From an uncultured Planctomycetaceae bacterium (lineage in GTDB: Bacteria > Planctomycetota > Planctomycetia > Planctomycetales > Planctomycetaceae), in contig CAWFAK010000009.1 of NCBI GenBank assembly GCA_963813715.1, positions 288,001-352,000 of the forward strand: DNA of 64,000 bases, in the 5' to 3' direction. The translations under genes and the position numbers were made by a program. This document shows, in pieces, positions 43,663 through 53,125 of the stretch (position 1 is its first letter; each line of letters opens with the position of its first letter). Below the pieces are notes generated by a model that saw only the letters and a list, made by a program, of their open reading frames with translations, was not told the DNA's origin and did not search any database.

Positions 43663-46600
43663 TTACTTCGACTCGGAGATGCCCAGCTTCATCTCGTCCG
43701 AGTTGGCTTTAAGTTCCGGAGCGTACATTCCGGAGCCCGTTGCCGGCAACGCGCTGAACCGGCCGGGGATTTCCGCCCGCATGCGGTAGCGGAGGCTGTG
43801 CCGGCCGCGGGGCAGCTCGCGGAGGAAAAGATTGATCTTTTCATCGCGCAGCTCGACGAAAGCCGGCAGCCCCTGGGCATTGTAGCCGCTTTGCACGTCG
43901 AATGGCTCGACTCCGGCCGCTTTGGGGTCGGCCAGCACGATATGCTCGTAATCGTTCTTGCTGTCGACGATCAGCTCGATCTCGAGCAGGTCGCCGCTTT
44001 TGACCTCGCTGCCGGTGTTCAAAAGCTCGCGGCGATACTTCTCCCGCCGCTCGGAAACGACCTGCCCCCGCGACCCGGCGGCGTTCGCCTCCTCGTCAGC
44101 CCGCGTCAGCTTGTAATATGCCCGGTCGACCTTGATCTCGAGCCCGGCGCGGTTGATGAACTCCTCAAGCGTGAAGGTCGTGAGGTAGGCGTTGAAGTAG
44201 AGCGGGCCCGTGCCGCGCTTCTTCAGCTCGATCTTGTGCGATCCCGTGCCCAGCGCGTCCCCTGCGACGGCCACCCGATCGTCGTAAGTGAAGAGATCGG
44301 CCGCCGTGATCGAAACCTCTTTGACTTTGCGGCCGTCGACCAGCACGTCCACCGTCAGGTCGGGCCGGTCCTCGCCGCTGGCTTTCCAGTAGTCGGCCAG
44401 CGCCTCGATGGCGATGGCCGTGTCGCGGGTGCTGTTCCAGTACGTGGCGTGCTTGCGGTTGTTGAGCAGGTACTTGGCCAACCGCGACGCCTTTTCCCCC
44501 TTGGGGTCGGTCCGGGCGAGCAGCTTGAGGTAATAGGCGTTGGCCTCGGTGTCGCTGTCGTACCAGAACCACCAGAACGAGCCCTCGGGCATCTTGAGAT
44601 ACGCCGTCTGGTTCTCGTCGTCCTGCACGAGATACTGGTCGATGTTGCGAACGATCATCGCCAACCGCTCGTTGGCCTTCACCTTCTCCAGGGCCAATCC
44701 GAAGATTCCCTTTGCGTAGACGCTGAGCTTCGTCCGGTCACGATACAAAAAGTCCTGCATCTCGCTGCTGTTGACGTCGGCATCGACGAGCACCAGGTAC
44801 ACGAGTGCGTCGATGTTGTCCGCGTACTGCTTCGTCCGCTCGAGCGACGGTTTTGACTTGTCATAGCGCTTGAGCCGGACCAGTTGATCCTCCTGGTAGG
44901 CCTTCAACCAGGCGACCCCTTTTGTGAGCATCTCAGGCACGAGGGCCACGCCGTTTTGCTGCGCGAGCTGCAGACCGTGAACGATCAGGGCCGTTTGATG
45001 CGGCTCGGAATGCTCGCCCCAGCCGGAGAACCAGCCCCAGCCGCCGTCGGCAAGCTGCATTTCGGTGAGCGTCTGCACGCCCGCCTTCACCATGCGGGTG
45101 ACCTCGGCATTGTCGAAGACCGGGTTTTCCTCGAACCGCTTCCAACCGGCGGCTCGCACGGCCGCGTCGCCCAGCTCCTGGGCGTTGAGATCGGCCCGTT
45201 TCTTCTTAATCTGCGCCAGGTCAAGGTTCATCCGCTTGAGAATGCCCTGCACGATGACCGTCGGCAGGAAGCGATTGAGCGTGCAATCGGTCGTGTTGTG
45301 CGGATAGCGGACGAGATACGGCAGCGCATCGACGAGCGCAGCCGCCAGGCTGGGCGAATAGCGGATTTCCAGGAGCGTATCGTTCACCCGCCGCCGCTCG
45401 GGGACCACGATCTGGAACGTGGCCGAATTCTTGTCGGGGCGGATCGAGCCGGAATAGGCCTCGGTTTTCAGCATGCCGTGGACGCGGACGGGGAAATGCA
45501 TCTCAACGGCGTCGGACTCTTCGTCGGTGAGCGCCTTCATGCGGACGACGGCCTCGCCCTCGGCAGTCGCCTTCACCCGCCAATCGACCCGCGTTTCGCC
45601 GCCGGCGGCCACTTCAACCGTCTTTTCGCTCGGATCGAGCGGCGTGAGCGACTTGCCGTCGAACTCGATCACCGTCCGCACACTTTTCGACGATTTGAGG
45701 CGGTTATGCACGATGGCCGAGAGGACGACTTCGTCCGTCTCGACAAAGAACCGCGGAGCCTCCATCCGCACGAGCAAGTTCTTGGTCGTGACGATTTCGG
45801 CCGCGCCCTCGCCCACCCGTGTGCCGGGTGCCAACGTCCACGCGCGAATCTTCCACGTCGTCAAATTCTCCGGCAGCGGAAAAGCCACCGTGGCGTAGCC
45901 GTCGGCATCCGCCTCGAGCCGGGCGTTCCAATAGGCTGTGTCCGCAAACTGCGAGCGGACCGTCGGCTGGACTTCTTCGGGAGCCTTTTTTAGTCCTCCC
46001 ATTCCCCCACCACCCATGCCGGCCGCCTCTCTTGCGTTGAAGAGGGGCGCGCCGGCGACGGCGGCCGGCGCAGCGGCCTTTCCGTCGCTGTCGGCCAATC
46101 CAACGTAGTCATAGGAAATCGTCTTCCGGCCCCACCGTCGACCCGACCCCTGTAAAAACGTAGCGTCGCGCTCATCTGCTGGATTGCCTTCGACAGCCTC
46201 GCCGAATACGCCAACGGCGCTCATTGGCGTCTCCCTCGGTTTGACGAGGTCAAAACCAGTTCGGTCCAGGCTCGACTCGGTTATCGGACTATGCGTGCGA
46301 CGAAAATCCCAGAAGAACTTTCGGATGTCCGCCATGTTTGATCCGCCCGAGATGTACTCGACGCTCTTGTCGTAAACCGAAACCACGATCGAGCCGCGGA
46401 CCGGCTTTCCGTCCCGGTCGGTCAGCTTGATTCGCGTCTGGCTTTGGGCGCCCGGCTTGTAGTCGTGAGCGGACGGCTCGACCGACACGTCAACGACGCG
46501 TTTCTCCGGCGGCACGATGATCTCGCGAGATTCGGAATAGAGGCGACCGTCCGAAATCGTGAAAGCCTCGACGAAGAAGTTTGGCATGTCGCCCTGGCGG

Positions 46601-49600
46601 ACGTCGATCTCCGTGACGACGCTCTTCCCGGAAAGGTGCACGATCTGCGGCTTGGAATAGGCTTCATTGGTGGGCCGCACGAAAAGAAAGACCGTGCTGT
46701 CGGGGCGATTCGTGTTGATCAACAGCCGCACGCGTTCGCCCGGCTTGTATTCGCGGCGGTCGGCGATCAGCTCGAGGTCGTTGAAGCGGAACTTCGCGCT
46801 GTCGAACCCTTGGCCCAAAATGGTGAAGACGACGGCCCCTTCAATCGTCCGCTGCTTGGCGTCGGTCACCTTGTAGGCCAGGCGATACTGCCCCGGTTCG
46901 GACGCTTTGATCTGCAAGTGGGCCTGCCCCTGTGCGTCGGGATCGACGTTCCAGGTCTGAGCGGCCGTTTCGACCGGTTTCTTGTCGGCACCGTAAGTCA
47001 CACGGTAGAGGCTGACGACGCCTTTTCCCGCGACCGGCTTGCGATCGAGGGTTTGCGCCGTGAACTGGGCCTCGATGGCGTCGCCGGCGCGGTAATAGCC
47101 GCGATCGGTCCAAGCGAATACGTCGAACGGCTTGCGGGCGACGAGGACTTCCCCGGAGCCGACGATCGTCCGCCGCGATTGGTCCACGACCTCCGCGCGA
47201 ATCTCGTAGCGGTGATTCGTGTCGCCGTGCAGCTCCTTGGCCAGTGCCGTATCGATGGGCACGGTGACGGTGCCGTCCGGGCCGATGGGCACCGTCTGAT
47301 CGGCGACGACTTCCGGCGGGGTGAAACTGAAGCGAGGCCCCCACGAAGTTTGCGGCCGCGGCAGATCCCCAATCCCGCCAACCGGGATACCACGTGTAGT
47401 CGGGCCAGAACCACCAGTAGCCGGGCCCGAAACACCAGTCCCAGAACGCGACGGGGTACCAGCGCTCCGCGTAGCTGGTCCGGGTGATCGTGTAGTGCAC
47501 ATTGGCCTGAGTGACCGGGCCGCCGAAGTAATAAGACGCCTTGATGGTCGCCGTGAATTTGTCGCCCAGCGCCACCGGCTCGGTCGGCGCGGAAACGGTC
47601 ACTTCGAATTCCGGCTTCTTGTACTCCTCGACGCGAAACGAAACGCCGCCGGCAACATCCGGGTGATCTTCGATCGTGAGCGAATAGCCGCCGAGCGCCG
47701 CATCATCGGGGAGACGAAAGTCGCCGTCGAAACCGCCGAAGCTGTCGGCTGTGTATGTTTTCTCAAGAAGCAATTCGCCACGCGAGTTGTTGAGGCGAAT
47801 CTTGAACGTCTGCCCCGCATATTTGGACGCCAGCGGCGCGTCGTACTTCGATTGGGCGACCCAGATCTTCCAGTGCAGTGTCTGCCCCGGACGGTAGACG
47901 GGCCGATCGGTCAGGCCGAAAACCTTTCCCACCTCGGAGACATCGTTTTCCGCATCCGAACCGCTGTACCAGATCCAATCGAAGCCCAGGAACGCCAGCC
48001 GTTGCCCCTGCCGGGCCACCGCGACCCACTGGTACTCCTTGAGCAGTTGTTGGCCGTCGACGGCAGCCTGCCCGTCGGCGCCGGTCGATTCGGCGAAGTT
48101 GGCTGTGAGGATCTCCGGCGGCTGGCGGTCGCGGTTTTGTTGTTTGAAGCCGAAGAATTCGATGTTCGCTCCCCCGATCGGCCGGCCGTCGATCGCATCG
48201 GCCACGACGTAGAGCGCGCCGGAATGCATGGGCTTGCGGACGAGGACCGTGTCGGCAATCCAGACGACAATGCGGCTCACGTTGCCGCCATCAAGCCGGC
48301 CCGTCACCAGATAGGCGCCCGCTCGCTGCAGCGGCAACGCGACTTCGATCTGCCGGTCGAGATGCTCGGGACGCGGATCGAGGCCGAGCGACCATTGGGC
48401 GACGCGTTCGCTGAGATACTGCGTCTGGTTCTCGACAACCAGGCGATAGCCGATCTGCCCCAGGTCGATCTTCGACATATCGAGGGAGCGTGGCCGCGAT
48501 TTGATATAGGCCTTCACGTCGGCAAAGAGCTTTTCGATGTTGATCGCGTGCGCTTCCAGCTCGAGCCGCTTGCCGTTGCGGAAGCGGAACGGCACCGTGC
48601 GCCCGGCGGTGGCGGGCTGCGTCGGCGTCGGCTCGAAGCGGCCCCAATTGCCCACGATCTGATCGAGCCGCTTCTGCCACGAATCCTGCGGCCCGCGACC
48701 GAAGCGACGAATCAGCTCGCTCCAAACGTCGGCCGCCCGCGGATATTGGCGGCGGTTCTCGTAGATCGAAGCCAGCGCCATCAGGGCTCGCGTCGCCTCG
48801 GCCCTCTGACCGTCATGGGCGACTTGTCGATAAATCCGCAGGTAATTGAACTCGTCTGGTAGCTTGAAACGCTTGACGCCCGTCGCCAGGCGGGCGAGCG
48901 TCTCGTCGTCGGTGAGTGTGCGAACCTGCAGCGGCGCTGCCAGACTCTCGTCGCTCCCGAACGCGCGTCCGTACTCCACCAGGGTTTGCACACCGAACTG
49001 CGCGTGCAGAAAGTCGGCCAGTTGCAGCGCGGCCTGGTCTTTCTTCGCCGGCGAGGTGGCGCCCGCTTGCGAGAGAGCCCAACGCCAGCGCTCGCCATCC
49101 GATTTGGCCGCGGCCCAGCTCGCGGGCACGTGATGAAAGACCGGATTGCCGGCGGCATCGACCGGCGCGCCCTGCGATTCTCCGCGGCCGACACGCCAGC
49201 GGAGCGAAACCGCCTTGGCTTCGTAATCCGGCAGCTTCGCGAGATCGGTGAGAGCCTGCAGCTGCCAGGCCGCGAGGCCGTTTTGAATTTCCCGCGCCAG
49301 GTCGAGGTAAAAGCCGGCGACGGCATTGCGATCCGGCTCACTGGCGAGCAGGGGCAGCGCTTGCTGCAAGAGTTGCAGCGTGCGGACACGGTCACGCGCG
49401 ATCGAACCGGCGTAATTGCCGCCGCCACGTTGGAAGCCGCGGTGAAACTCGTTGCCGATCATCTGCCCGAAATGCTGGTCGCGTGCCAGGCTGTCGGCCG
49501 CCGCCTGCAGCAACCGCCAGTTCTGGGCGTGCGCGGCGATCACCGCTTCGCGAAACGCGTCGATTTCGTTTTCACGCGCCAGACGTTGGAGAGTCTGCAC

Positions 49601-49834
49601 GCCGCGTTCGAGGTCGTGGCTGACGAGCCTGGGATCGTCGTCGCGATCGAGGGCTAGCTTGCGATAAAGCTCCCACGCGTCGCGATAGTTGCCGGCTTTG
49701 AAGGCGGCGCCGGCCTGTTTCCGCGCGTCGGCCGGCGACGGATCGGCGGCGAAGAAGCGAGCGACGGCGGCCAGACACAGAACCGCGGCGAAAAGAATCA
49801 CGCCGCCGCGTGACTTGAAAGCGCGCAAAGTCAT
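43663..49834 (-). CDS. Alpha-2-macroglobulin family (MG2) protein, about 2050 aa (frameshift near 47350)
   Basis: TDRPVYRPG, FRVEEYKKPEFEV, TAYWN...LPENLTTW, DGGWGW, WNSTRDTA, MYAPE. Confidence 0.93.
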
Positions 49835-49922: not shown

Positions 49923-50044
49923 GGCGAGCGGCGGGTGTCAGCCCGCCGGTTCTGGTTTCCCTGATCCGCTGTGCTTCCTTTGACTTCAACCTCAAGTTGA
50001 CCATGAAGAAGCAAGAACCGGCGGGCTCACACCCGCCGCTCGCC
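49923..50044. repeat. REP-like inverted doublet
   Basis: GGCGAGCGGCGGGTGTCAGCCCGCCGGTTCT and AGAACCGGCGGGCTCACACCCGCCGCTCGCC. Confidence 0.85.
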
Positions 50045-50160: not shown

Positions 50161-51624
50161 TTACATCTTGTTCGAGCAACCCGGGGCCGGAGCCGGTTGG
50201 CACGTCTGGCAGCCCGGTCCGCAGGGAACCTGACGGCAGACGGTCCGGGGGACACAACGAGTCACCGTGTACTGCACTTGCCGCGGCACGCAGCGGCTGC
50301 AGGTCTTGTAGTGCGTCTCACAGACCTGGTGGCAGGTCGTGTAAGGAACCTTCTTCGTGCAGGTCTCCTGCGTGTAGGTGCAGGTGTGGTAGGGGACCAT
50401 CTTCGTGCAGGTCTCCTGGACCATGTGGCACGTCACGTAGGGGATCGTCTTCTGGCAGACTTCCTTGTGCCACGTGCAGCTCACGTAAGGAATCTGCTTC
50501 TGGACCGTGTAGTGCTGCCACGTGCAGCTCGTGTAGGGGACGGTCTTGTGGCAGACTTCCTGCGTGTACGTGCAGGTCGTGTAAGGAACGCGCTTCGTGC
50601 AGGTCTGCTGAGTGTAGGTGCAGACGGTGTAAGGCACCTTCTGGACCGACTGAACCGGAACTTGGCGGCAGACCGTGTACGGGCACTGCGAGTGCTTCAC
50701 TTCCATCTCGTAACGCGTGCAAGTCTGCTCTTGCTTCACGATCTTCGGCACCCAGACGCGGCGGCAGCACTGCGTGCCGGGGCACTGGACCTGGACCATG
50801 TGGCAAGCACCGGGCTGGTAACGGCAGCAGCAAGTGTTCGGATCGTAGCACCACGTGCCCGGATCACACTGGCACTGATTCATCACCGGGCCGGGAATGT
50901 TCTCGACCTGGTTCTGCCATTCGCCACAGTCGACGTCGACCATGTTCTTCTCGACGACCGGCTTGCACTCCGTGTAGGTCACGTCGCGGTAGCAGGTCTG
51001 TTGTTCGGTCTTCCACGTCGTCGTGCAGACGTCTTTGGTGCACGTCTCGTAGTGGGGCGTGCAGACGTTGTAGCAGACGTCGCGGTAGCAGGTCTGGTAG
51101 CAGGGCTTGCAGACCGTGTAGCAGACGTCCTTGTAACAGGTCTGGAAGCACGGCTTGCAGACCGGGACGCAGCACGTCTTGTAGCAGGTCTGGAAGCACG
51201 GCTTGCAGACGGTGAAGCAGCAGGTCTTGTAGCACGTCTGGAAGCAGGGCTTGCAGTACGTGTGGCAGACCGGCTTGTAGCACGTCTGGTGGTGGGGGAC
51301 ACAGACCGTGGAGCAGACGTCCTTCCAGCAGGTCTCCTGAACGTTGCGGGTGCAGGTGTACGGGATCTGCTCGCAAACGCGGTCATAGACCGTCTTGCAG
51401 CAGGTCTCGTTGTGCTGTTCCCAAACCGTCTCCTGCACCGTCTTCATGCAGACAGGGTCTGGGCAGCAGCAGCTCTTGGCGGCAGTGAAGTCGCCGGCCG
51501 GCGCACAACACGTCGGCGGGCAACAGCTATAGCTCTGCGTACCGCAGAGCCCCGCGTCGACGCTGTTGGCAAAGAGCGCTAGCGCCAGCGCGGCAAGCAT
51601 TGTTTCCAGGTGTGCGGTCTTCAT
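50161..51624 (-). CDS. Secreted Cys-rich 16-residue-repeat protein (YTV-like planctomycete envelope protein)
   Basis: Signal peptide ending VDA; about 76 Cys (hand count); repeats CKPCFQTCYKTCCFTV and CTYTQQTCTKRVPYTT; own terminator. Confidence 0.85.
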   Translation of the reverse strand: MKTAHLETMLAALALALFANSVDAGLCGTQSYSCCPPTCCAPAGDFTAAKSCCCPDPVCMKTVQETVWEQHNETCCKTVYDRVCEQIPYTCTRNVQETCWKDVCSTVCVPHHQTCYKPVCHTYCKPCFQTCYKTCCFTVCKPCFQTCYKTCCVPVCKPCFQTCYKDVCYTVCKPCYQTCYRDVCYNVCTPHYETCTKDVCTTTWKTEQQTCYRDVTYTECKPVVEKNMVDVDCGEWQNQVENIPGPVMNQCQCDPGTWCYDPNTCCCRYQPGACHMVQVQCPGTQCCRRVWVPKIVKQEQTCTRYEMEVKHSQCPYTVCRQVPVQSVQKVPYTVCTYTQQTCTKRVPYTTCTYTQEVCHKTVPYTSCTWQHYTVQKQIPYVSCTWHKEVCQKTIPYVTCHMVQETCTKMVPYHTCTYTQETCTKKVPYTTCHQVCETHYKTCSRCVPRQVQYTVTRCVPRTVCRQVPCGPGCQTCQPAPAPGCSNKM

Positions 51625-51973
51625 CGAACTTGCCCTCGTAAAAGCGATCCATGCGAACAGGGTCGGCGGGTTCACATACCGCCCGTCCCTCTTTACGTCG
51701 TCAACGCAGACCGGAGCCTTGAGTCACTCCACGCACTTCGCCGGGTCTGCCTGACCCTGTTCTTTTGTCTGGGGGACATAACCCCCAAGGGCGTTACAAC
51801 CGACATCCTCGACCGCGCGCGAACCACATGCGCCGTGTGCGACGGCCGGCCCTCGCGCCGTTCGACCGCGACCGCCGGGACGCTTACAATCGCCCGAGCG
51901 CCGCCGAACGGGCGCGCCACGCGTGCCGTCCGCACCGATTGCAACGAGCGATTCGCCCCCCGGGAGCCGACCG

Positions 51974-52799
51974 ATGAAGTTCGCCATCTGCCAGGAGTTG
52001 TTCGAGGACTGGGACTGGGATCGCCAGTGCCGCTTCATCGCGGAAGTCGGCTACACGGGGATCGAGGTCGCCCCCTTCACGTTCGCTCGACGGATCGAAG
52101 AGGTGACCCCCCAACGACGGCGCGAGCTGCGGCAACAGGCTGAGGCTCACGGCCTGTCGATCATCGGACTGCACTGGCTCCTCGCCAAAACTGAAGGGCT
52201 GCACCTGACTTCCGCCGACCCCGCGGTGCGGCGGGCGACGGCCGCCTATCTCGTCGAGCTGACGCACGCCTGCGCGGACCTGGGAGGCGAGCTCTTGGTC
52301 TTCGGCTCCCCCAAGCAACGGGACCTGGCTCCCGGGATGACATACGAGGAAGGCCTCGACCATGCCGCGGAGGTCTTCCGCGCCGCCCTTCCCGCACTCG
52401 CCGAACGTCGTGTGCGACTCTGCCTGGAGCCGCTGACCCCGAAGGAAACCAACTTCCTCAACACGTGCGCCCAAGCGCAGGCGCTGATCGACCGCATCGA
52501 CCACCCCAATCTGGTCCTGCACCAGGATGTGAAGGCGATGCGGCTGGCCGAATCGCAGCCGGTGCCCGCGTTGATCGCCGAGTACGCCGGCCGCGTCGGC
52601 CATTTTCACGCGAACGACACGAACCTGTTGGGTCCAGGAATGGGTGAAACGGACTTCGTGCCGATCTTCGCCGCGCTCTTGCGCGGCGTATTCGGGTTGG
52701 GTTTCGGTCGAGGTGTTCGACTACAGTCCGGGGTGCGAACGCATCGCGCGCGAAAGTTTTCGCGCGATGCAGGACGCGCTCACGCGCGCTTCGGCATGA
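51974..52799 (+). CDS. Sugar phosphate isomerase/epimerase (xylose-isomerase-like TIM barrel; frameshift near 52685)
   Basis: GYTGIEVAPF, FGSPKQR, LEPL...ETNF, HFHAND, shifted-frame WVSVEVFDY. Confidence 0.9.
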
Positions 52800-52817
52800 A
52801 GAAACGCCGCGCAGACG

Positions 52818-52861
52818 ATCGCGTCGAAAAAAAATCCGAAAATTTTTTCGATGCGATTTTT
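52818..52861 (+). terminator. Terminator-like hairpin
   Basis: ATCGCGTCGAAAAAA/TTTTTTCGATGCGAT 15-bp stem followed by T-run. Confidence 0.65.
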
Positions 52862-53125
52862 CGTCGCTGAGCGGCGCGATTCGCACATCGCGACGAGTGC
52901 GCAGCGCACGTGTAAAAAGCGCACAATCAACGAGCGCCAGCGACGCGCGCTACAAAAAAGCCTATTTTTCTCGATGAAAATGCGCGCTGCGCAACCTGCG
53001 CGCGCGGCGCAATGCGCTCACGGGCGATGACTTGCGTCGCGCGCGCTGCGCACGGCGCAAGCGGAGACCGCGCCACCGTCGTGACTTGTGACGATTCCTG
53101 CGCGCTCAAAGACGACGTAAATGGC

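Follow-up and report, generated by a model that had tools for sequence, protein, structure and literature searches.

A gene on the reverse strand of a 64,000-nucleotide (nt) stretch of DNA from an uncultured Planctomycetaceae bacterium (the window; assembly GCA_963813715.1, contig CAWFAK010000009.1, positions 288,001 to 352,000) encodes, at window positions 50161..51624, a cysteine-rich member of the YTV family. We consider it fairly probable that this protein, hereafter the query, is a Sec-exported envelope protein that forms a single giant two-stranded antiparallel hairpin, with arm cysteines that serve intermolecular disulfides. Computation supports its family membership and architecture, the register between its two repeat arms, the co-variation of arm lengths among homologues and the avoidance of directly opposed cysteines. 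Residues are numbered throughout in the 504-amino-acid (aa) frame that starts at a GTG codon, in which the mature part begins after residue 41.

Following removal of the signal peptide, the 463-aa chain would form one continuous two-stranded antiparallel β-ribbon with ~185 residues per strand, about 60-63 nm in length. N-arm residue cs-k would pair with C-arm residue ce+k+3, where cs and ce are the start and end of a conserved centre, so that the positions of two partners add up to 561 (i+j=561). A conserved tip, kinked where PG motifs occur and with D278-P-N-T at its apex, would close the ribbon at one end, and both termini would lie together at the open end. Matched counts of 16-aa YTV units in the two arms would fix its length, and cysteines displayed on both faces would form the intermolecular disulfides that weld ribbons into a protein wall resistant to sodium dodecyl sulfate (SDS). 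Export, the intramolecular ribbon, cross-linking and the wall role are the parts of this scheme that we infer.

Family membership and architecture

A preliminary description of this stretch had proposed YTV membership, which is borne out by a Pfam YTV (PF07639) match in six stretches (E 3.3e-21, 75.5 bits against a cut-off of 21). Nothing besides YTV was found by hmmscan against Pfam at E up to 1, and NCBIfam holds no matching family model. A word-indexed search returned 116 relatives, nearly all with PF07639 and, where named, from Planctomycetota, and an exhaustive HMMER search yielded 515 cluster representatives at E up to 1e-3. The common layout of these homologues comprises a signal peptide, a Cys-rich cap, a conserved head with a YTV array, a 65-aa centre and a second YTV array. 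On the C-terminal side there follow a conserved tail, RCVPR.VC.QVPV, and a variable C-terminus that in some proteins carries a helical extension of ~100-170 aa. Of 243 fetched proteins, 124 contain the centre according to a profile built from it, and just one of these has a second matched stretch; the query scores 102 bits against this profile over aa 247-311, a single tip module between two YTV repeat arrays. Among genomes, the profile matched 235 of 301 sampled members of the class (227 of 287 of good quality), nearly always once, and none of 115 genomes of other families within a 121-genome sample of the phylum (E up to 1e-3); on these samples the centre is restricted to the class. Overall, the gene is an ordinary representative of an established family, and the query is the copy that this genome carries of a subfamily occurring throughout its planctomycete class as a single strong copy per genome.

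The composition and periodicity given in the preliminary description hold up on counting. About 76 Cys in 463 mature residues had been reported, in a protein rich in T, V, Y and C with almost no Leu, and the 463-aa mature protein contains C 76, T 68, V 54, Q 41, P 38, Y 32 and L 1. Self-comparison brings out the 16-residue period of the two arms: identities number 161 at offset 16, 135 at 32, 112 at 48 and 81 at 64, whereas unrelated offsets give ~50. At the DNA level, 48-nt tandem arrays run through both arms (51025-51289 and 50323-50634). The arms belong to the same repeat family in direct orientation and are not mirrored sequence; in distant homologues the N-arm units read YTVCKPVWETKTKE and the C-arm units YKVCKMVPEQRTKT.

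The precursor opens with a putative signal peptide, MKTAHLETMLAALALALFANSVDA (aa 18-41; 51553..51624, as all features of this gene on the reverse strand), called by eye and with a hydrophobicity window on the translation and by comparison with homologues. It has a short, charged N-terminal stretch and a hydrophobic core, and an A-x-A site precedes GLCG, with cleavage presumed after VDA. Homologues begin likewise, with A-x-A followed by L, Y or F and then CG, and the query has the same pattern. A lipobox was rejected because the residue preceding the Cys is L, Y or F in homologues. The mature protein starts with a Cys-rich N-terminal cap (aa 42-75; 51451..51552, from the translation), which holds 10 Cys and whose structure is predicted with low confidence, at a predicted local distance difference test (pLDDT) of 44-63 in the AlphaFold model. 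At the hairpin's open end the cap would adjoin the C-terminal tail, with C69 opposite C492 (sum 561).

The N-arm (aa 76-246, 171 residues; 50938..51450) is supported by the period of 16, the 48-nt array, AlphaFold strands and covariation, and consists of a conserved head (KTVQETVWE...TVYDRVCE) followed by 16-aa YTV units, CKPCFQTCYKTCCFTV and CKPCYQTCYRDVCYNV. The tip module (aa 247-311; 50743..50937) is supported by a hidden Markov model (HMM) of the centre, a 12-sequence alignment of it (A2) and AlphaFold. It is a conserved 65-aa unit with a single strong match per genome, and G251, W253, P261, G262, G273, D278, Y286, P288, G289, Q297, C298, P299, W308 and P310 are invariant in A2. Within it lies the DPNT apex turn (aa 278-281; 50833..50844), placed by alignments A1 and A2 and by AlphaFold; its D278 does not vary in A2 and reaches at least 90% conservation in A1. 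The central DPNT turn of the preliminary description is found as the apex in AlphaFold, within a conserved 65-aa tip module and not as a bare turn. The C-arm (aa 312-485, 174 residues; 50221..50742), supported by the 48-nt arrays, AlphaFold strands and covariation, consists of 16-aa units VPYTTCTYTQETCTKK and then a tail RCVPRQVQYTVTRCVPRTVCRQVPC. A short Cys/Pro/Gly-rich C-terminal tail, GPGCQTCQPAPAPGCSNKM (aa 486-504; 50164..50220, from the translation), has a pLDDT below 50 and ends the protein.

The query is without the long helical C-terminal extension present in some homologues. Where present, this extension follows the hairpin region for ~100-200 aa and is conserved (...YFQALA.YQ.G...WG..MERVQG..R.WLE.AR); its carriers are P0023, P0024, P0026, P0031, P0033, P0034, P0054, P0055, P0064 and P0125. 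Three further homologues (P0061, P0101 and P0106) are annotated with TPR-type Pfam families.

All the landmarks that the preliminary description had placed symmetrically about a sum of ~561 were located where it put them: DPNT at 278-281, PG at 261, 272, 288 and 299, W253/W308, C270/C291 and C76/C485, with pairs summing to 561. The set of conserved positions in the centre is itself symmetric in the 12-sequence alignment, and four mirror pairs of invariant residues fall at the same sum, namely G251/P310, W253/W308, G262/P299 and G273/P288. Because these four invariant pairs share the AlphaFold and covariation register of 561, the symmetry goes beyond chance. Residue-for-residue mirror identity at sum 561 amounts to 21/224, not above shuffles (mean maximum 31), and was dropped as evidence; a hairpin does not need such identity.

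Probable pairing of the two arms

Covariation between the arms was measured as mutual information with average product correction. Because the arms beside the centre align without gaps, the start of the centre served as anchor for the N-arm columns and its end for those of the C-arm. With 64 residues per side (152 sequences; effective number of sequences, Neff, 114), the diagonals d=m-k, for N-arm position k and C-arm position m counted outward from the centre, gave mean signals of 0.141 at d=3, 0.119 at d=1 and 0.091 at d=5. None of the other diagonals between -30 and +30 exceeded 0.038. Of the 25 strongest covarying pairs, 23 lie at odd d from 1 to 9. When 144 residues per side were considered (128 sequences), d=3, 1 and 5 beat every other scorable diagonal in all six bins, out to k=141, with values of 0.10-0.18 over a background mean of 0.00-0.02 (standard deviation 0.02) in the four bins where it was computable. 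The same diagonals were the top three in seven of seven subsets (families f1, to which the query belongs, f3 and f5, each alone; other families; metagenome sequences only; low-Cys sequences; and all but f1); the signal is therefore not made by differences in repeat period between families. Such a pattern in the aligned sequences reads as the signature of an antiparallel ladder, composed of direct partners and same-face diagonal neighbors. The long anti-diagonal that the preliminary description expected of a contact map is present in covariation over at least 141 residues per arm in all of these subsets.

AlphaFold2 predictions for the mature query as a single chain, with a 106-sequence alignment, gave a mean pLDDT of 66.6 and a predicted template modeling score (pTM) of 0.24, with pLDDT reaching 80-90 near the centre and the arm ends. 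According to DSSP, almost the whole chain is in very long strands. These cover 76-122, 145-174 and 180-260 in the N-arm and 301-381, 403-432 and 439-485 in the C-arm, and the tip adds 264-270, 274-278, 283-287 and 291-297 around the unpaired residues 279-282 (apex P279-C282). Strands of equal length are partnered at sum 561 in four cases (76-122/439-485, 180-260/301-381, 264-270/291-297 and 274-278/283-287), and the symmetric strand breaks coincide with the PG motifs. The covariation register d=3 is the register of this model. Similarly, P0160, a 385-aa homologue with few Cys, was modeled as a single chain with 72 sequences at a mean pLDDT of 73.8 (127 residues at 90 or above), with two 109-residue strands, 28-136 and 199-307, whose boundary sums are both 335. 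That sum equals cs+ce+3, the same centre offset as the 561 of the query (247+311+3). Overall, the single antiparallel hairpin of the preliminary description is supported by AlphaFold, covariation and arm lengths. Its turn near residue 280 and arm ends at 76/485 stand, and its arms of ~200 residues and ~65 nm are revised to about 185 residues and 61-63 nm.

The covariation register N(-k):C(+k+3) predicts an offset in arm length, and the query arms of 171 and 174 residues fit it. Repeat-array extents of the N- and C-arms run in parallel, at 170/174 in the query and at 154/159, 186/190, 122/127, 138/143, 106/109, 208/215 and 56/55 elsewhere. In the set of protein and metagenome sequences, from which 11 of 55 rows had been removed beforehand as truncated or frameshifted, 25 of 44 fall within 6 aa of C=N+5, compared with a permutation mean of 5.7 and maximum of 15. 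A genome set was assembled from 110 loci cut from genomes of the class, 107 of which have a centre ORF (open reading frame) and 101 of which were usable. The distance from signal peptide to centre and that from centre to protein end co-vary over the 101 loci (Pearson 0.72, Spearman 0.79) and over 69 genus medians (Pearson 0.77, Spearman 0.80), and 80 of the 101 lie within 24 aa of the median arm difference. The expectation in the preliminary description that both arms gain and lose repeats together is thus upheld, with exceptions. By HMM extents, 40 of 70 loci sit on C=N+5 (±3), spanning 13 distinct lengths from 121 to 308 and 8 families, whereas 10,000 permutations averaged 9.3 such loci and never gave more than 20.

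The dominant repeat period is the same in both arms at 78 of 101 loci (16/16 in 37, 32/32 in 33 and 30/30 in 8). In family f5 (for example L083, L097, L111 and L118), both arms are built of a 32-aa super-repeat of two unlike 16-aa halves; these arms are ~300 and ~275 aa long, and the predicted ribbon would measure ~100 nm. Several length measures were set aside. Iterated head and tail HMM anchors drifted to generic repeat models and were replaced by first- and last-match extents and end distances, and a walk along Pro residues in the C-arm failed on units that have no Pro. A test of the order of Pro spacings in 32 proteins (25 equal, 2 mirror, 5 direct) was uninformative.

It is hardly to be expected that the arms are unpaired, forming local hairpins, a solenoid or a disordered chain until cross-linked, with the AlphaFold hairpin as a repeat artefact. 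Repeat proteins are prone to over-regular predictions, and the low pTM, a mid-arm pLDDT below 50 in the query and the unequal arms of some homologues would all suit that explanation. Against it stand an anti-diagonal whose register stays fixed as far as k=141, which no other diagonal rivals and which also shows within single families, arm lengths matched over 13 length classes, and a pLDDT above 90 over most of P0160.

A different arrangement, in which the N-arm of one molecule pairs with the C-arm of another at the same register to give swapped dimers or head-to-tail polymers in a filament or sheet, fits covariation and arm-length matching equally well. It would also accommodate the difficulty of picturing a lone ~60 nm ribbon as stable, and unequal arms such as those of P0013 and P0040 would leave an overhang for a neighbor. 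We nevertheless regard intermolecular pairing as unlikely, since the tip itself covaries and, in the predictions, carries the ladder on tightly (short strands with sums of 561), which places the arms of one chain together. Moreover, equal arms are required by closure within a chain, whereas a polymer could tolerate unequal ones.

Several observations weigh against the single-chain hairpin. A free two-stranded ribbon of such length lacks precedent and may exist only within an assembly, and covariation is blind to whether N-arm and C-arm pair within or between chains. AlphaFold draws on the same kind of alignment signal and is not fully independent of it, the pTM is low for both models (0.24 for the query and 0.28 for P0160), and strand partners were deduced from equal lengths and boundary sums and not read from contacts. 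In the query model, strands 145-174 and 403-432 sum to 577, one repeat off register; this shift falls where aa 121-181 and 381-441 have a pLDDT below 55, and it is not seen in family-wide covariation. As for arm lengths, related genomes are not independent and the length anchors are crude. Over 12 family medians the correlation drops to r 0.53 (p 0.07), and 30 of the 70 loci lie off the exact diagonal, several by ~16 or 32 aa, that is, by one or two anchor units. Arms are unequal in P0013 (~12 N-arm versus 5 C-arm units), P0040 (~56 versus at least 127 aa), L070 (191/124) and L059 (355/263), and in P0014 and P0017 the C-arm is longer by two units (C = N + 2). Truncated or frameshifted genes and misplaced anchors account for many of the remaining apparent outliers.

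Cysteines between the arms

The preliminary description had envisaged a hairpin stitched together by disulfides, and this part of the proposal fails. In the query, Cys directly faces Cys at sum 561 in just three places, twice at the open end (69/492 and 76/485) and once in the tip (270/291). The residues that face arm cysteines are mostly Tyr (14), Gln (11) and Thr (7). Across 132 family members, 4 Cys-Cys pairs were observed at d=3 where 151 were expected. In the same sequences Cys-Cys pairs are also depleted at d=1 (0.40) and d=5 (0.52) and enriched at d=-1, 6 and 10. From the depletion at d=3 it follows that the cysteines are out of register and that the arms of the ribbon are not internally stapled.

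A hairpin stapled lengthwise by intrachain cross-strand disulfides would have to adopt register 560 or 564, at each of which the query shows 13 Cys-Cys coincidences, compared with 3 at 561. Such coincidences are unspecific, as the repeat pattern alone predicts them at 2 of 16 registers. The Cys-pair register test was accordingly uninformative: many registers tie through the period, and none recurs consistently across 22 Cys-rich homologues. Covariation and AlphaFold both give d=3, and the alternatives d=2 and d=6 would put side chains on opposite faces or too far apart. Together with the depletion of Cys-Cys pairs at d=3, 1 and 5 across the family, these results make a stapled hairpin very unlikely. 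Furthermore, homologues with less than 3% Cys share the architecture, the covariation pattern and the predicted fold; with the same architecture in such relatives, the cysteines are not needed for the fold.

In the unstapled hairpin that we favor, cysteines would be available on both sides of the ribbon. By position parity, the N-arm of the query has 16 odd and 18 even Cys and the C-arm 10 and 13; with an even period, regular rows of Cys recur on each face separately. Judged from the scarcity of directly opposed pairs, the arm cysteines probably serve intermolecular bonds.

Genomic setting and possible place in the planctomycete wall

The longest frame (50161..51675, reverse strand) has 504 codons and a GTG start at 51675, which adds 17 residues relative to an in-frame ATG at 51624 (codon 18). 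We took this ATG as the start because signal-peptide logic and a GAGGG placed 8 nt ahead of it favor it; with the stop at 50161-50163, the ORF list and start codons then give a 487-aa precursor. A terminator-like GC-rich stem-loop with a T-rich tail (50009..50038, reverse strand), called from a consensus scan only, lies ~120 nt past the stop, and from its sequence setting the gene looks monocistronic. Two near-identical GC-rich stem-loops, at 49929-49948 on the forward strand and 50019-50038 on the reverse strand, oppose each other between the YTV gene and a macroglobulin gene. Both read CGGCGGGTGT, then C or G, then AGCCCGCCG, followed by a T-rich tail. Together they could form a bidirectional terminator pair, or they could represent a small repeat element.

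Downstream of the YTV gene are an alpha-2-macroglobulin gene in two overlapping frames, and der. Upstream, on the opposite strand, are a xylose-isomerase-like TIM-barrel gene (51923-52870) and a gene for an HtrA-type protease. The bacterial alpha-2-macroglobulin gene (window 43663-49834, reverse strand) looks split: frame 46841..49834 holds an MG2 domain and a nonsense-like tail, and frame 43663..47502 holds the A2M, bait-region, TED and bMG10 domains. The split may reflect a frameshift or a sequencing error near 46.8-47.5 kb.

A scan of 106 ORFs flanking orthologues in 56 genera (loci L040-L119) showed neighbors conserved within single families only, so a conserved operon partner was rejected. 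A divergent TIM-barrel gene accompanies the orthologue in 10 of 17 f1 genera, a gene for a Rex-like redox repressor in 4 of 6 f11 and 2 of 7 f3 genera, and a menaquinone gene of the futalosine type in 5 of 17 f5 genera. No thiol-disulfide oxidoreductase or other redox-folding partner occurs among these flanking ORFs.

The same genome (G000) contains two further YTV genes. One, on contig 8 (L001:1231-2553, forward strand), is a 440-aa frame of the same architecture with a shortened centre of ~51 aa that matches weakly (E 1.9e-5); its last ~70 residues seem to be out of frame. The other, on contig 7 (L002:506-2586, reverse strand), lies in two overlapping frames that break at a Gly/Ala/Cys-rich centre after ...VDQGHWEDR, through either a frameshift or an assembly problem in this GC-rich low-complexity stretch, and inspection by eye suggests a 28-aa repeat in both of its arms.

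No solved structure similar to the hairpin model was found. Foldseek searches of the pdb gave no match at E up to 1e-3, the best rows having E 1.3e-3 or worse and a template modeling (TM) score of at most 0.18, and a VIA wide search with the P0160 model gave no significant relative, with a best Z of 3.2. The weak rows included anthrax protective antigen, lysenin, aerolysin and the phi29 tail knob, with perforin/MAC in Foldseek only. The hairpin stems of these pore formers and the phi29 knob are also long two-stranded antiparallel hairpins, but such scores (TM at most 0.18, Z at most 3.2) imply no homology, and the query has no Pfam match to these families. Pore-former hairpins have ~30-50 residues per strand, are amphipathic and exist only within oligomeric barrels. 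In contrast, the query would have ~185 residues per strand with both faces polar, and the whole protein would be the hairpin. The E-G5 repeats of staphylococcal SasG and Aap form long thin β-rods that have no hydrophobic core, as strings of small three-stranded domains running in one direction. The query chain would instead run out and back, with its termini together and its repeats added in pairs.

The OmcA/OmcB complex of Chlamydiae, a related group with reduced peptidoglycan, consists of Cys-rich envelope proteins joined by intermolecular disulfides. The query would work in a similar way, with its envelope stiffened by intermolecular disulfides, although it bears no sequence relation to OmcA or OmcB (hmmscan gives only YTV) and differs in fold and repeats. 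Descriptions going back to the 1980s present the planctomycete wall as mostly protein and rich in cystine, and YTV proteins are its signature component. One study repeats, second-hand, an older statement that these walls are protein rich in cystine and proline (PMC8567305). According to two reports, Cys-rich YTV proteins are the top proteins in walls prepared from Rhodopirellula baltica, Gemmata and Tuwongella (PMC8567305, PMC12673574), and YTV proteins are described as confined to Planctomycetia/Planctomycetales (PMC10632474, PMC12673574, PMC8567305). In Planctopirus limnophila, the YTV gene Plim_0937 is listed as essential, in a set almost restricted to Planctomycetes, in PMC10632474 and its supplement.

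The query shares with the wall YTV proteins of Rhodopirellula baltica, Gemmata obscuriglobus and Tuwongella immobilis and with Plim_0937 the Pfam family PF07639, the taxonomic restriction, a composition rich in Cys, Thr, Tyr and Val, and secretion, which for the query is predicted. Publications give motif content and localization for those proteins. Recovery from the detergent-insoluble wall fraction and dependence on disulfides are known only for YTV proteins other than the query (PMC8567305). By analogy with the papers on these other YTV proteins, a wall role for the query is plausible. No description of a YTV fold, a tip domain or matched arms was found in the full-text literature, in a search that did not cover every key family paper.

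A concrete fold for YTV wall proteins would predict rod length from sequence, which repeat deletions are tolerated and which of the cysteines take part in intermolecular cross-links. If the fold is correct, a conserved hairpin with ~185 residues per strand lies far beyond solved β-hairpins. It is possible, if doubtful, that the centre-domain YTV protein is a strut of the planctomycete wall, by far the longest hairpin ribbon, with ordered rows of unpaired Cys welding ribbons together, and maybe the orthologue of Plim_0937. Were this so, ribbon length would range from ~40 to 100 nm across families, set by paired changes in YTV units. The ribbon would then be a protein counterpart of the glycan strand of peptidoglycan, and its length would set some physical dimension of the envelope, mesh size or layer spacing for instance.

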